A DNA stretch of 64,000 nucleotides. Origin: Escherichia coli. GTDB lineage: Bacteria; Pseudomonadota; Gammaproteobacteria; Enterobacterales; Enterobacteriaceae. The stretch is taken from NCBI RefSeq assembly GCF_041886205.1, contig NZ_CP169029.1. One strand, given 5' to 3'. The position numbers and the translations under genes were made by a program. The notes below the pieces were generated by a model. The model saw only the letters and a list, made by a program, of their open reading frames with translations. It searched no databases and was not told the DNA's origin. Positions 17,185 through 24,459 of the stretch are shown here, one piece after another; position 1 is the stretch's first letter, and each line of letters opens with the position of its first letter.

Positions 17185-17223
17185 TGCTAACGTCAGATTG
17201 TTGACAAAGTGCGCGTCGTTCAT

Positions 17224-17323
17224 GCCGGATGCGGCGTGAACGCCTTATCAGGCCTACAAAAATCTTGTCAATTCAATATATTGCAGGATCACGTAGGCCT
17301 GATAAGCGTAGCGCATCAGGCAG
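17224..17323. repeat. REP/BIME element (two inverted REP units) between fepA and entD
   Basis: gccggatgcggcgtgaacgccttatcaggcctac and the inverted partner gtaggcctgataagcgtagcgcatcaggca. Confidence 0.85.
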
Positions 17324-18089: not shown

Positions 18090-19428
18090 CATAAGCGCTA
18101 ACTTAAGGGTTGAACCATCTGAAGAATGCGACGCCTCGGTGCCTCGTTAAGACGATGCCTCGCGTTCTTCAATTGCGTTTTGTAGGCTGTCAGGGATACT
18201 GTCCCACGAATGGCCACCTGTAAGCTCCAGATGACCATTTTTGTTATTCTCCACAACGAGTTAGTTCTTCTTTTCGGATCCGGCACTTCTGGGGGGGAAA
18301 TCCAGCGATGGCTGGATTATGTCGTCAATTAAAAATGCGGCGAGTAGATTAGCAAATATCCACGCTTTCGCGAGTTCAGGTTCCTTTGCACGCAAAGCAT
18401 CCAGGTGCAGCAAACTTTTGAGCCGCTTAAAAGCCAGTTCAATTTGCCATCGCAGACGGTAACAATCAGCCACTTGCTCTGCTGAATATTCATCTTCCGG
18501 TAATGATGTTAGCAATAGCACATGGCCCGCTGCTTCCAGCGTTTCCGCCTGAACTACTCGTCCTTTTCGACGATTCTCGCTGAGCAGTCGGGTTTTACTG
18601 ATTAATGCTTTTTCGGGAGGAAGTGATACGGCAATGAGACGTGCCGGAAAGGGAGCTCCGGCTTTTTTATTACCTGAATTGCCTATCATTACAGTGGTTT
18701 CACCGTTCTTACCGCAATCCAGCCCGCGCAGAAAACCCATCATGTCAAAGCGCATTCCTTCTGCAGTTAACCAGCGCAATCCTCGCCAGTGAACCCGGAC
18801 GATATAATCAGCTTCTCCAAAAGCAAGTGAGCGGATACATTCGGGACGCGAACCGAATCCCCGGTCAGCAATGCGTATCTCGTCTGCCGTTTGCGCAAAT
18901 CGGTCCAGCCGTTCAGCGTCTCTGCTGTCGGTTAGCTCAAAATCAGTGAACTGACAGGTATGAGGATCATATCCCATATGTAGTCGCCATTCAGCGCTGC
19001 CGCCCCCGGGCGCACTGATTGCTGTTCCATCGACAAGACGCAATCTCTTTCCGCTTGTACAACCCGTAACTGCGGCGCGTACAGCAAGTGTTTGTGCGGC
19101 AAGTATGCCAAACCAGTCGGCGGCATTCCGCAGCCGCTTCAGGAGAGCCACGTCAGATAATGTTGCAACGTCATGGAGCTGAGCCCATGCAGTGACTTCA
19201 CGTAATGACATCCCCCCGGGGCCGTAAGCCAGCCCCAGACGTAGCAGAGTTGCAGCATCACGAATTTCGCGGCGGCGGGTTAGAGCCCCGGCATTACGTG
19301 CCGAAGTATCCAGTTCTTCGGGCTTACCAATATGGGCCAGAATTGCTGACCAGTTATCGTGAGAGTAATTCATCGGCACGTTAAATCATATCAGGCGTAA
19401 TACCACAACCCTTAAGTTAGCGCTTATG
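18090..19428 (-). mobile_element. IS186 (IS4 family), copy 1, complete; transposase on the minus strand
   Basis: Terminal inverted repeats cataagcgctaacttaagggttg (18090-18112) and caacccttaagttagcgcttatg (19406-19428); flanked by direct repeats ggattactcc (18080-18089 and 19429-19438); boundaries accurate to about 1 bp. Confidence 0.92.
18261..19373 (-). CDS. insL: IS186 transposase
   Basis: ORF MNYSHDNWSAILAHIGKPEELDTSARNAG...; 370 aa from the internal Met, the track ORF starts two codons earlier at 19379. Confidence 0.93.
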   Translation of the reverse strand: MNYSHDNWSAILAHIGKPEELDTSARNAGALTRRREIRDAATLLRLGLAYGPGGMSLREVTAWAQLHDVATLSDVALLKRLRNAADWFGILAAQTLAVRAAVTGCTSGKRLRLVDGTAISAPGGGSAEWRLHMGYDPHTCQFTDFELTDSRDAERLDRFAQTADEIRIADRGFGSRPECIRSLAFGEADYIVRVHWRGLRWLTAEGMRFDMMGFLRGLDCGKNGETTVMIGNSGNKKAGAPFPARLIAVSLPPEKALISKTRLLSENRRKGRVVQAETLEAAGHVLLLTSLPEDEYSAEQVADCYRLRWQIELAFKRLKSLLHLDALRAKEPELAKAWIFANLLAAFLIDDIIQPSLDFPPRSAGSEKKN

Positions 19429-19850
19429 GGATTACTCCCCGCACAGCGGCTACTTCTTCGGTTCGTAAGCGAGAACAGCCTTAAACTCAATATTACGTTC
19501 CTTTACCGTAAACTCACACAACGAGTCTCCGACCAGAAGCGTAAATCCCAGCACCGTCAAACACAGCACTATGACTGCCACAAGGGCATATTTCGTCAGC
19601 ATGTTTATATTGCCTCCATGCGAAGAAGGGACTACCATCCGAGTTGTTGAGGTTCGGAGTGGCAGCCCCAGGATTGATAGAAATTTCTCCTGGGGCTTCA
19701 TCTTTCCAGACCTCAGAGTTAACCTGAAACCGGAAAGCTTCAGGCACCCGCCGTTATCTTACCCTTCCTTAGCAAAATAGCTGTTTATTTATACAGTGAG
19801 TCCTGTTTCGGACTTCTGTCAGCAAAACTCATCATTGCTCTTAAAACGAA
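19429..19850 (-). other. hok/sok-type type I toxin-antitoxin module, copy A (hokE coding region plus upstream mok/sok leader); its 3' UTR is separated by IS186 copy 1
   Basis: Contains the hokE ORF with GGAGG Shine-Dalgarno, an in-frame upstream ORF (19450-19701) and an overlapping out-of-frame ORF (19514-19747) as mok candidates; the 3' hairpin segment now lies at 18000-18089. Confidence 0.7.
19450..19602 (-). CDS. hokE: Hok-family membrane toxin HokE, copy A
   Basis: 50 aa [50 protein letters not shown]; single transmembrane helix typical of Hok/Gef; stop codon 21 bp from the IS186 end. Confidence 0.9.
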
Positions 19851-19941
19851 ATCGCCCGCAGCCATCACTGACCGCGGGCGAAAGTGTAAAGCAGGTGCCT
19901 TACCATCCTGACCTGACAACCGGATATGCGGGGATTGCTCC

Positions 19942-21280
19942 CATAAGCGCTAACTTAAGGGTTGTGGTATTACGCCTGATATGATTTAACGTGCCGATGA
20001 ATTACTCTCACGATAACTGGTCAGCAATTCTGGCCCATATTGGTAAGCCCGAAGAACTGGATACTTCGGCACGTAATGCCGGGGCTCTAACCCGCCGCCG
20101 CGAAATTCGTGATGCTGCAACTCTGCTACGTCTGGGGCTGGCTTACGGCCCCGGGGGGATGTCATTACGTGAAGTCACTGCATGGGCTCAGCTCCATGAC
20201 GTTGCAACATTATCTGACGTGGCTCTCCTGAAGCGGCTGCGGAATGCCGCCGACTGGTTTGGCATACTTGCCGCACAAACACTTGCTGTACGCGCCGCAG
20301 TTACGGGTTGTACAAGCGGAAAGAGATTGCGTCTTGTCGATGGAACAGCAATCAGTGCGCCCGGGGGCGGCAGCGCTGAATGGCGACTACATATGGGATA
20401 TGATCCTCATACCTGTCAGTTCACTGATTTTGAGCTAACCGACAGCAGAGACGCTGAACGGCTGGACCGATTTGCGCAAACGGCAGACGAGATACGCATT
20501 GCTGACCGGGGATTCGGTTCGCGTCCCGAATGTATCCGCTCACTTGCTTTTGGAGAAGCTGATTATATCGTCCGGGTTCACTGGCGAGGATTGCGCTGGT
20601 TAACTGCAGAAGGAATGCGCTTTGACATGATGGGTTTTCTGCGCGGGCTGGATTGCGGTAAGAACGGTGAAACCACTGTAATGATAGGCAATTCAGGTAA
20701 TAAAAAAGCCGGAGCTCCCTTTCCGGCACGTCTCATTGCCGTATCACTTCCTCCCGAAAAAGCATTAATCAGTAAAACCCGACTGCTCAGCGAGAATCGT
20801 CGAAAAGGACGAGTAGTTCAGGCGGAAACGCTGGAAGCAGCGGGCCATGTGCTATTGCTAACATCATTACCGGAAGATGAATATTCAGCAGAGCAAGTGG
20901 CTGATTGTTACCGTCTGCGATGGCAAATTGAACTGGCTTTTAAGCGGCTCAAAAGTTTGCTGCACCTGGATGCTTTGCGTGCAAAGGAACCTGAACTCGC
21001 GAAAGCGTGGATATTTGCTAATCTACTCGCCGCATTTTTAATTGACGACATAATCCAGCCATCGCTGGATTTCCCCCCCAGAAGTGCCGGATCCGAAAAG
21101 AAGAACTAACTCGTTGTGGAGAATAACAAAAATGGTCATCTGGAGCTTACAGGTGGCCATTCGTGGGACAGTATCCCTGACAGCCTACAAAACGCAATTG
21201 AAGAACGCGAGGCATCGTCTTAACGAGGCACCGAGGCGTCGCATTCTTCAGATGGTTCAACCCTTAAGTTAGCGCTTATG
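19942..21280 (+). mobile_element. IS186, copy 2, complete; inverted relative to copy 1
   Basis: Same 23 bp terminal inverted repeats at 19942-19964 and 21258-21280; flanked by direct repeats ggattgctcc (19932-19941 and 21281-21290); transposase protein identical to copy 1. Confidence 0.92.
19997..21109 (+). CDS. insL: IS186 transposase
   Basis: 370 aa, identical in protein sequence to the copy-1 transposase. Confidence 0.93.
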   Translation: MNYSHDNWSAILAHIGKPEELDTSARNAGALTRRREIRDAATLLRLGLAYGPGGMSLREVTAWAQLHDVATLSDVALLKRLRNAADWFGILAAQTLAVRAAVTGCTSGKRLRLVDGTAISAPGGGSAEWRLHMGYDPHTCQFTDFELTDSRDAERLDRFAQTADEIRIADRGFGSRPECIRSLAFGEADYIVRVHWRGLRWLTAEGMRFDMMGFLRGLDCGKNGETTVMIGNSGNKKAGAPFPARLIAVSLPPEKALISKTRLLSENRRKGRVVQAETLEAAGHVLLLTSLPEDEYSAEQVADCYRLRWQIELAFKRLKSLLHLDALRAKEPELAKAWIFANLLAAFLIDDIIQPSLDFPPRSAGSEKKN

Positions 21281-21301
21281 GGATTGCTCCCCGCACAACG
21301 G

Positions 21302-21454
21302 CTACTTCTTCGGTTCGTAAGCGAGAACAGCCTTAAACTCAATATTACGTTCCTTCACCGTAAACTCACACAGCGAGTCGCCGACCAGAAGCGTAAATCC
21401 CAGCACCGTTAAACACAGTACTATGACTGCCGCAAGGGCATATTTCGTCAGCAT
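21302..21454 (-). CDS. hokE: Hok-family toxin HokE, copy B (V8A variant)
   Basis: [50 protein letters not shown]; 6 nucleotide differences from copy A, one non-synonymous; IS186 copy 2 lies 21 bp after the stop and IS150 71 bp before the ATG. Confidence 0.88.
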
Positions 21455-21551
21455 GTTTATATTGCCTCCATGCGAAGAAGGGACTACCATCCAAATTGTT
21501 CAGGTTTGGGTAGGTAGCCCTAGGGTGTACTGACCCCAAAAAGTTGGACAG

Positions 21552-22403
21552 TTAAACACGAGGCATATAGGTCTGATTCCGATATTCAATTGGAGTCAGA
21601 CCTTTTAATTTCAGGCTAATTCTTCTGCTGTTGTAGTATTCAATATATTCCGTAACAGCATCCTTCAGTTCGCTTATATTACTGAACTCATCAAGATAAA
21701 AACACTCCGACTTTAAGGTTCCAAAGAAACACTCCACCACAGCATTATCCAGACAATTGCCTTTTCTGGACATGCTTTGTTTAATACCATGTTCTTTAAG
21801 GATATTTTGATATCTTCTCATACGATACTGCCATCCCTGGTCAGAGTGCAGAACAGGATGCTCGTGAGGATTAAGCTTTTTGAATGCCTGATCGAGCATA
21901 TTCTCAACCATGTTCATCACTGGTCTTTCCGAAAGGCTGTAAGAAATAACTTCATTGTTGAAGAGATCTATTACTGGAGACAAATACAGCTTGCGCCCAT
22001 TGACTGCAAATTCAGTAACATCGGTAACCCACTTCTCGTTTGGCCGCGTAGCCTTGAAATCTCTTTGGAGAACATTGGGGGCGGTTTGCCCTACCTCTCT
22101 TCTGTAAGAGCGGTATCGCTTGACCTTAATCGCTGCCTTAAGTGAGAGGGTTCCCATCAGGCGCTGAACAGCTTTATGGTTAATCTGTTTCCCTTCTCGA
22201 TGAAGAGACAGCGTTACCCTACGGTATCCGTATCGGCCTCTATTCTCATGATAAATCTCACCAATACGCTTTTTAACGCCCGCATACTTGTCAGGCTTGC
22301 TGAGAGCCTTTAGATGGTAATAAAACGTACTGCGCGGTATCTCCGCAGCCCTGAGAAGCTCATCAAGAGGATAAAACTGCCTTAGCTCGTTGAGTACTTT
22401 CAC
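21552..22403 (-). CDS. insK: IS150 OrfB (transposase catalytic part, DDE)
   Basis: 283 aa [32 protein letters not shown]... Confidence 0.92.
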
Positions 22404-22921
22404 TTTTTCGTGGGATGAGCTAAGGCTTTCAGCTTTTTTAGATACACAAGCCGCGTTTCAAGAAATCGAACTTGCCTTTCAAGATCCTCAATGCGTCGGT
22501 CTTTTGACAGCTCCAATGCTGATGCCGCTTTTTCTGGATCAACTGATATTGCAATGTTTCTTTTGGTGCCAATCTTGAGCGCGCGTAAACCAGCTTCTCC
22601 GCGATCTTCATAAACCTTCAGCCACCTGGCTACAGAACCACTACCAGCAAGCATAAAGTGAGCAGCAGCCTGATTAAGGGACATGTGCTGCTCGATCACA
22701 GCTTTCACGACCTTAATACGCAACTCTGGATCAGCACTAACGCCTTTAGGTTTGGGAATTAAACCTTTTTCTCCATGTTTTTCATAGAGGGCAACCCATG
22801 TCCTGACCTGGGTTCGGGGGACACCAAAACGTGCCGAGATGATCCTGTAACCATCATCAGTTGTGAAGTAGTGATTCACGACTTCAAGGCGCTTTTCAAA
22901 AGGGTATTTTGGCTTTGACAT
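22400..22921 (-). CDS. insJ: IS150 OrfA (helix-turn-helix DNA-binding part)
   Basis: 173 aa MSKPKYPFEKRLEVVNHYFTTDDGYRIISARFGVPRTQVRTW. Confidence 0.92.
   Translation of the reverse strand: MSKPKYPFEKRLEVVNHYFTTDDGYRIISARFGVPRTQVRTWVALYEKHGEKGLIPKPKGVSADPELRIKVVKAVIEQHMSLNQAAAHFMLAGSGSVARWLKVYEDRGEAGLRALKIGTKRNIAISVDPEKAASALELSKDRRIEDLERQVRFLETRLVYLKKLKALAHPTKK
22433..22439 (-). other. IS150 programmed -1 ribosomal frameshift heptamer A-AAA-AAG
   Basis: Minus-strand AAAAAAG lies in the orfA zero frame as CTA-AAA-AAG, 33 nt upstream of the orfA stop, where the orfB frame overlaps. Confidence 0.75.
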
Positions 22922-23331
22922 ATTAGGGGCTATTCCATTTCATCGTCCAACAAAATGGGTGCAGTACAGGGTTGATAGAAATATCTCCTGGGGCTTCATC
23001 TTTCCAGACCTCAGAGTAAACCTGAAACCGGAAAGCTTCAGGCACCCGCCGTTATCTTACCCTTCCTCAACAAAATAGCTGTTTATTTATACAGTAAATC
23101 CTGTTTCGGACTTCTCACTCCTCATTTAATCAACTGAAGCTGAACCCGTTTTTTCTGCATGCCTCAATCGTCAAAATTCTTCGCCGCCAGCCAGCTAAGA
23201 CGCAACTGGTCACATTGCAAAAGTAGCCAAATTACTTCAGTCACCATCACCAAAAAAAAGAAACATTCCAGAACTTCCGCATCTCGCCCAGCCGCTCCCA
23301 CTTCTATACTGAATGGAAAACGCCAACATAA

Positions 23332-24459
<1,128 letters not shown>

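Follow-up and report, generated by a model that had tools for sequence, protein, structure and literature searches.

The window, by which we mean the whole 64,000-nucleotide stretch of Escherichia coli DNA that was analysed, covers the entD-ybdK region and carries its hok genes on the minus strand. Two hokE genes stand there in tandem, and the one proximal to ybdK (copy B) has IS150 on its upstream side and IS186 on its downstream side. The region is made up of the following features.

up to about 17980: entD
18090-19428, minus strand: IS186-A, downstream of hokE-A, with duplication GGATTACTCC
19450-19752, minus strand: hokE-A, the reference copy with an unbroken leader, which ends at about 19752
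19450-19602, minus strand: hokE-A open reading frame, encoding an A8V variant
19646-19705, plus strand: sokE-A, an intact 60-nt homologue of K-12 sokE
19800-19941, minus strand: spacer that represents the displaced 3' end of the hokE-B transcript
19942-21280, plus strand: IS186-B (RefSeq: IS421 family), with a 10-bp duplication GGATTGCTCC at 19932-19941 and 21281-21290
21302-21454, minus strand: intact hokE-B toxin open reading frame, 50 aa plus stop
21455-21525, minus strand: hokE-B leader remnant of 71 bp, with the hok Shine-Dalgarno sequence (GGAGG) and the 3' hairpin of the leader
21526-22968, minus strand: complete IS150 of 1443 bp, co-oriented with hokE-B, IRR at 21526 and IRL at 22968
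23341-24459: ybdK

The sequence of hokE-A and that of the reconstructed hokE-B were 93.6% identical, and the two IS186 elements occupied the same site relative to hokE in opposite orientations. The full layout with two hokE genes and two IS186 elements was found in 3 of the 5426 complete E. coli genomes. The leader of hokE-A matched the Rfam sok model RF01794 over its full length (80.2 bits, 19594-19749), and folding of sokE-A predicted a terminal hairpin. The initial annotation had described copy B as hit at both ends but still in possession of its toxin frame and Shine-Dalgarno sequence, and we found the same: IS150 lies upstream, IS186-B ends 21 bp past the stop codon, GGAGG is present in the leader remnant, and the encoded protein is identical to HokE of K-12 and REL606. 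The 71-bp remnant matched only positions of about 85-157 of the RF01794 model (23.7 bits). On the downstream side, the 19800-19941 spacer carries an intrinsic terminator at 19852-19881 and an AGGCACC stretch which, as read from the sequence, is complementary to the 5' end of the mRNA and resembles an fbi element. Since IS186-B intervenes, this 3' fold-back element and the terminator are not contiguous with hokE-B.

Both ends of IS150 (TGTACTGACCCC at 21526 and GGGTGCAGTACA at 22968) and the GGG duplication mapped where the initial annotation had placed them, and the distance to the hokE-B start codon was exactly the 71 bp (21455-21525) that it had given. The following features belong to the element and its target.

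21523-21525 and 22969-22971: target-site duplication GGG, hok-side copy and promoter-side copy, respectively
21552-22403, minus strand: intact IS150 orfB, 283 aa
22400-22921, minus strand: intact IS150 orfA, 173 aa
21569-21612, plus strand: terminator-like hairpin of 15 bp plus a T-run in the right end of IS150 (pattern scan; fold -43 kcal/mol)

The frames of orfA and orfB overlap at 22400-22403, and an A AAA AAG -1 frameshift site lies at 22433-22439 (CTAAAAAAG at 22433-22441). In near-identical genomes the RefSeq name of this product is IS150 family transposase. The terminal inverted repeats are imperfect (IRL TGTACTGCACCCATTTTGTTGG, IRR TGTACTGACCCCAAAAAGTTGG) and have the expected TGTACTG start. 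Compared with the annotated K-12 IS150, the element showed 11 mismatches over 1443 bp (99.2% identity), and this level of identity to a known insertion sequence, together with the clean target duplication, ruled out a chance match. An assembly artefact was also rejected, since identical junctions are present in hundreds of independent complete assemblies. Excision of IS150 with one GGG from the sequence gave back a leader that could be aligned base for base to those of copy A and K-12 hokE.

The position of the antitoxin gene relative to the insertion was obtained by mapping of the K-12 annotation, in which sokE (607733-607792) lies on the strand opposite hokE (607836-607988), which leaves only 44 bp between the hok ATG and the SokE 5' end upstream of it. 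The K-12 annotation was used because the Rfam model RF01794 could not place the antisense gene, as it matches the hok-sense strand and spans the whole 157-nt leader. By homology to the annotated K-12 sokE, IS150 sits inside the predicted sokE-B, after nt 25-28 of 60. In the SokE terminator hairpin, the insertion point is where the 5' arm meets the loop (CCCCAGGG^TTGATAG...CCTGGGG), and it separates the following parts.

21462-21525, plus strand: retained half of sokE-B, consisting of a putative promoter and the first 28 nt of SokE-B (21498-21525), abutting the right end of IS150
22969-23003, plus strand: displaced 3' 35 nt of sokE-B, with the loop, the 3' terminator arm and the U-tail, abutting the left end of IS150
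22969 to about 23100, minus strand: displaced hokE-B promoter and 5' leader, adjoining ybdK and reading into the left end of IS150

The putative sok promoter, as read from the sequence, has a -35 hexamer TTGCCT (21462-21467) and a -10 hexamer TACCAT (21485-21490) with a spacer of 17 bp. The two hexamers score 8/12, which is below the threshold of our promoter scan, and the stretch from TTGCCT through the spacer to TACCAT does not differ between K-12 and the two copies of the window. We infer that this is the sok promoter, that it is kept beside the hok open reading frame and that it would fire into IS150. The initial annotation had proposed that the hok promoter and the antisense region of copy B were both moved away next to ybdK. 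This was correct for the hok promoter, the 5' leader and the mok-like start, which now lie 1.4 kb off beside ybdK, but not for sok, whose promoter and first 28 nt stay by hok while only the 3' 35 nt were moved. The predicted antitoxin gene is split by IS150, not displaced as a block.

The displaced leader was nearly identical to the K-12 sequence upstream of hokE, and the Rfam model starts in it at 23047. A mok-like ATG at 22997-22999 is cut off from hok by IS150, which on the hok strand falls at codon 9-10 of the mok-like open reading frame, 71 bp upstream of hok. In copy A the equivalent position (about 19671-19673) lies, as the initial annotation had claimed, inside an in-frame 83-aa open reading frame (19450-19701) and an overlapping 77-aa one (19514-19747). 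On the hok side of copy B a TGA is present in the mok-like frame, and a mok frame reading from upstream into the hok initiation region is absent. Copy B also lacks an intact Sok gene with promoter, about 60 nt of antisense RNA and terminator hairpin, sokE-B being cut after nt 25-28, and a contiguous leader, the Rfam sok model being split at about position 84. A seemingly full-length Rfam sok match at 22892-23047 (63.7 bits) was discarded because its second half was aligned to IS150 and half of the match is thus spurious.

The hok/sok/mok system of plasmid R1 comprises a 50-aa Hok, an antisense Sok RNA of about 60 nt, a 5'/3' fold-back element, and a terminator. Its Sok promoter lies just upstream of hok, Sok overlaps the mok start region, and translation of hok depends on translation of mok, a coupling reportedly described by Thisted and Gerdes in 1992. 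The hokE locus resembles this system in its 50-aa toxin, its Sok of about 60 nt with the same promoter position and mok overlap, its fold-back element and its terminator, and differs from it in that the mok-like open reading frame is in frame with hok, whereas mok of R1 is out of frame. Copy B departs further from R1, in that its leader is interrupted, its Sok is incomplete and the 3' fold-back element no longer adjoins hok.

An allele of this structure is known. A NAR 2024 paper (PMC11551753) names it sokE::IS150, describes it in the laboratory XL1-Blue lineage and reports 'exactly' the same insertion in >400 natural isolates, as well as a precise revertant. The hokE region of E. coli B (REL606/BL21) carries the allele too, at the same ybdK-hokE locus, with the same insertion sequence in the same orientation as in the window. 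In our comparison, REL606 showed the arrangement ybdK-IS150(::IS1)-hokE-IS186-entD. Its IRR|CCC junction lies 71 bp upstream of hokE, as in the window, and is identical in PCP06173 and IPCEC48. The IS186 downstream of hokE is likewise shared by K-12, E. coli B and the window. REL606 differs from the window by an IS1 inside its IS150 and by a leader deletion beside IRL. The window in turn differs from the published allele in that its sokE::IS150 belongs to one of a tandem hokE pair, in which copy A has an unbroken leader and its own sokE, and it has the flank haplotype TAGGGCTACCTACCC where the common one is TGGGGCTGCCACTCC.

The whole 2.2-kb structure was found in one piece in 465 of the 5426 complete E. 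coli genomes, and a 90-nt query centred on the IS150/hokE junction found 547 of 5426, a number that includes a few hokX cross-matches. The feature is therefore an ordinary one, being a published allele that occurs in E. coli B and in about 10% of complete E. coli genomes; the allele of the window is already known and only its context, the tandem hokE, is rare. The initial annotation had missed that the allele is published, common to hundreds of genomes and not peculiar to the window. Taken with the distribution of IS150 described below, copy B is very probably the known sokE::IS150, a disabled module, at a strong and orientation-specific IS150 hot spot of hok/sok leaders.

A second disrupted locus is found in K-12, where the annotated genome (NC_000913.3) has IS150 at hokA, in agreement with what the initial annotation had mentioned. 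PMC11551753 likewise describes sokA of MG1655 as disrupted and attributes the K-12 hokA disruption to Pedersen & Gerdes 1999. As in the window, IS150 in K-12 hokA/sokA::IS150 lies in the hok leader and splits sok, and the breakpoint on the leader side is at the homologous ...ATCAAAG position. Unlike in the window, the element is inverted relative to hokA, no target duplication is present and the ATG is 32 bp away. The K-12 hokA locus is also without about 40 bp that are present in the co-oriented hokA::IS150 of EC32, whereas the insertion in the window is pristine. Cases are documented in which an IS150 insertion has no duplication and is accompanied by a deletion next to it, and an event of this kind would explain both the K-12 hokA form and the leader deletion of REL606.

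The insertion in copy B was one of a series of homologous ones. All of them share one arrangement: on the hok-sense strand YGRGGC follows directly after the three duplicated nucleotides, and IS150 has its left end toward the hok promoter. The loci, the sources and the duplications read on the hok-sense strand were as follows.

hokE: window, PCP06173 and IPCEC48 (three flank haplotypes), duplication CCC
hokX, between cysH and cas3: strain 361, duplication ACC
hokB: KTa008, duplication AAC
hokA: EC32, duplication AAG
a plasmid Hok-family gene: 274-kb plasmid, duplication ACC

Similar insertions are seen in laboratory evolution. In three lineages of a REL606 descendant new IS150 copies appeared at hokC(-71), where both the distance of 71 bp and the TATCAACCC motif agree with the window, and in the trg/mokB intergenic region one IS150 coordinate was hit in five laboratory lineages. 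Papers on the long-term evolution experiment are said to have noted repeated IS150 insertions at hokB/sokB. By junction-centred queries, which include some paralogue cross-matches and were run on genomes that share ancestry, we counted the IS150/hokB junction in 598 genomes, the co-oriented IS150/hokA junction in 1161, the K-12 type of IS150/hokA junction in 1644, and an IS150/plasmid hok-type junction in 684 records (312 at an identity of at least 99%); all IS150 right ends numbered 5880, in 2839 genomes. A hokB leader query with only 10 nt of IS150 matched 5067 genomes, a figure that gives the presence of the leader. Roughly two thirds of the counted IS150 copies, without correction for kinship, stand at this homologous site, and nearly every IS150-bearing genome has IS150 at hokA.

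These data suggest that IS150 would be found upstream of hokE-B because the site is a strong, orientation-specific hot spot in leaders of the hok/sok family. The nearest precedent is provided by IS1397 and ISKpn1, members of the IS3 family which insert specifically into REP hairpins (PMC1525189). IS150 resembles them in its repeated insertion at a defined position of a small intergenic palindrome with a GC stem, but its target is the Sok terminator hairpin of hok/sok and not REP. IS150 also inserts elsewhere, as in cycA, pykF and dgt in laboratory evolution. Our literature search found no experimental proof of a transposase-determined specificity of IS150, no paper stating a specificity of IS150 for hok/sok, and no paper with both IS150 and hokB/sokB. 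Mimicry of the element's end by its target is reported for IS911. We considered it here as well: the hokE flank TGGGGCTGCCACTCCA resembles IRL TGTACTGCACCCA, but mimicry was rejected because the likeness is absent in hokB, hokC and hokA.

The recurrence might instead reflect selection for inactivation of a costly or useless toxin–antitoxin locus together with clonal inheritance, with no part for target preference of the transposase. The authors of a PeerJ 2017 study took parallel IS150 insertions at hok/sok and ldr to mean that redundant functions are lost, the chromosomal hok loci of K-12 are all inactivated one way or another according to PMC11551753, and our genome counts are phylogenetically non-independent. 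Selection of this kind would, however, accept many positions and both orientations, whereas the actual insertions keep to one 3-nt register relative to YGRGGC and to one orientation at six paralogous loci. Moreover, identical coordinates recur in independent laboratory lineages, and hokE copies that had already been crippled by IS186 still receive IS150. A single register and a single orientation at six loci, with repeats in the laboratory, are hard to explain by inactivation selection alone, and we consider it unlikely as the explanation of the pattern, although it could contribute to the recurrence. The hot spot is the reading that we retain. It may be extended to the proposal that IS150 is effectively a site- and orientation-specific 'homing' element for hok/sok leaders (hokA, hokB, hokC, hokE, hokX and a hok gene of a plasmid of IncHI2 size), which we put forward tentatively, as a possibility that falls somewhat short of being probable. 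With such homing, read-in transcription from the constitutive hok promoter would reach the transposase genes owing to the fixed orientation, which also places the sok promoter antisense to their 3' end, so that the element and the toxin–antitoxin leader may regulate each other.

If the module is disabled in the way that its structure suggests, neither native SokE-B nor native hok mRNA could be made from copy B, from which IS186 had earlier removed the 3' fold-back element and the terminator. Any RNA containing hok would then arise by read-through, either from IS150 or from the displaced hok promoter via IS150. The output of toxin is expected to be low, since in the R1 paradigm hok translation requires coupling to mok, and such read-through RNA lacks it. 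Read-out from IS150 into hokE-B is plausible, given that orfA and orfB are co-directional with hok and that between orfB and hok no terminator-like site was seen on that strand. Our promoter/terminator scan gave nothing above chance level. Neither the hok nor the sok promoter was among its hits, no outward promoter above chance was detected at the right end of IS150, and the scan neither supports nor excludes read-out.

It could be argued that hokE-B is still an expressed toxin gene, transcribed by read-out from the right end of IS150, so that the insertion rewired the gene and did not silence it. In favour of such rewiring, hokE-B lies in the direction of both the IS150 genes and the displaced hok promoter, the toxin frame and its Shine-Dalgarno sequence are intact, and full-length antitoxin has been lost from copy B. 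In addition, P1 transduction in K-12 derivatives revealed a RecA-dependence phenotype that is not the same for sokE+ and sokE::IS150 (PMC11551753). However, the mok start is 1.4 kb off, with a stop in the mok-like frame of copy B, and the distance from the orfB stop to the hok ATG is about 98 nt, for which reason no translational coupling between orfB and hok is expected. In the modelled read-through RNA the hok Shine-Dalgarno sequence was predicted to pair with UGCCUCGUG of the IS150 3' end, and the predicted unpaired probability of its core was 0.01-0.26, compared with >0.9 in copy A. The putative convergent sok promoter is still present, the scan gave no outward promoter, and hundreds of genomes tolerate the insertion in this orientation, as do at least five hok paralogues, which argues against appreciable toxin output. 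The loss of mok, the convergent sok promoter and the predicted occlusion of the Shine-Dalgarno sequence argue against efficient expression of hokE-B, and continued expression as a toxin gene appears improbable to us. Complete silence of copy B cannot be assumed in view of the phenotype published in PMC11551753, which indicates that the allele is not silent in every case; derepression of HokE may be one of the causes of that phenotype.

It is still less probable that the retained sok promoter makes a functional SokE'-IS150 RNA serving as residual antitoxin or as antisense to the 3' end of the transposase mRNA: the promoter and the 28-nt 5' recognition segment of SokE-B are retained, the hairpin with its T-run lies 44-87 nt inside IS150 on the sok-read strand and could, from the fold model, end a chimera of about 115 nt, and this chimera would be fully complementary to any read-through hok RNA, but it is purely predicted, terminator-like sites in the region occur at chance frequency (2 found against 2.0 expected) and the stabilising hairpin of native Sok is lost from it. 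SokE-A is no obvious substitute for SokE-B, since the two differ at 8 of the first 28 nt and the cross-duplex is predicted to be about half as stable as the cognate one.

The sokE::IS150 module of the window matters little as a single instance, being one more copy of a published and widespread allele that disables hok/sok. Its annotation should nevertheless read sokE::IS150, with the antitoxin split and its promoter still by the toxin, as this alters the prediction of expression. Strains that carry sokE::IS150, including derivatives of E. coli B, are not equivalent to K-12 at the hokE locus, and the difference between sokE::IS150 and sokE+ reported in PMC11551753 shows that physiology can still be influenced by such 'dead' loci. 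More interesting than the single insertion is the pattern of a probable IS150 hot spot in the terminator hairpins of Sok. If true, it would provide a clean natural example of target-site selection in the IS3 family, and it would matter for whether parallel IS150 mutations in evolution experiments are interpreted as the product of a hot spot or of selection.

The IS150 copy of the window (21526-22968), which lies within sokE of hokE copy B, occupies the boundary between stem and loop of the Sok terminator, and this IS150 site is common to hokA, hokB, hokE, hokX and a plasmid hok. The orientation of the element was alike at all of these loci, and in each the target duplication was located directly 5' of YGRGGC. 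Junction counts in 5426 complete E. coli genomes suggest that, of all the IS150 copies they contain, about two thirds lie at the homologous Sok-terminator site. The features considered are as follows:

21523-21525 and 22969-22971, IS150 target duplication in the window, compared with comparison loci L004, L007, L008, L009, L010 and L011
21569-21612, + strand, perfect 15-bp hairpin followed by TTTTAATTTC, within the 3' end of IS150 orfB
834-2276 of L003 (K-12 hokA), IS150, compared with L010 (EC32 hokA)

At hokA two types of insertion were found. The K-12-type insertion is inverted and has no duplication, in contrast to the co-oriented EC32-type insertion, relative to which it also lacks about 40 bp of the leader. 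Junctions of the K-12 type were present in 1644 genomes and those of the EC32 type in 1161, and together they accounted for nearly all of the 2839 genomes with IS150. In E. coli B (REL606, L002 13490-15470) the hokE-associated IS150 is interrupted by IS1 and shows no duplication on the side of its left end, IRL, where the adjoining hokE promoter and leader (about 170 bp) are deleted. This leader loss is a deletion next to IS150, of a type that has been described in lines of the long-term evolution experiment.

The hairpin at 21569-21612 is on the strand opposite to the IS150 transposase, and it is predicted that it would stop transcription coming into IS150 from beyond its right end. In the remaining leader of copy B (21475-21500, - strand) we detected CCTGAAC, as opposed to CCCGAAC in K-12 and CCTCAAC in copy A. 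With the copy B sequence, the in-frame mok-like ORF acquires a TGA that lies four codons upstream of an internal ATG; IPCEC48, which also carries IS150, has the same change.

IS186 was found at an identical position in both hokE copies, 21 bp past the stop codon and within a GGGG-N6-CCCC palindrome. The two elements (18090-19428 and 19942-21280) have opposite orientations in the window, whereas in IPCEC48 (L009) both have the same one. Each is flanked by a separate 10-bp duplication, one base apart (GGATTACTCC and GGATTGCTCC). The opposite orientations and the one-base difference point either to two independent IS186 insertions at a hot spot for this element or to an inversion after a duplication.

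The region upstream of entD (17194-17300) matched the Rfam model of the ES036/CssrF sRNA at 39.8 bits, which exceeds the gathering score of that model, and partially matched the REP-like naRNA4.

The hokE copies themselves (19450-19800 compared with 21291-21525 plus 22972-23133) are 93.6% identical, with differences concentrated in the SokE 5' recognition segment and the target hairpin (8/28 nt). Such clustering in the sequence is as expected if the tandem modules were diverging toward separate Sok specificities.
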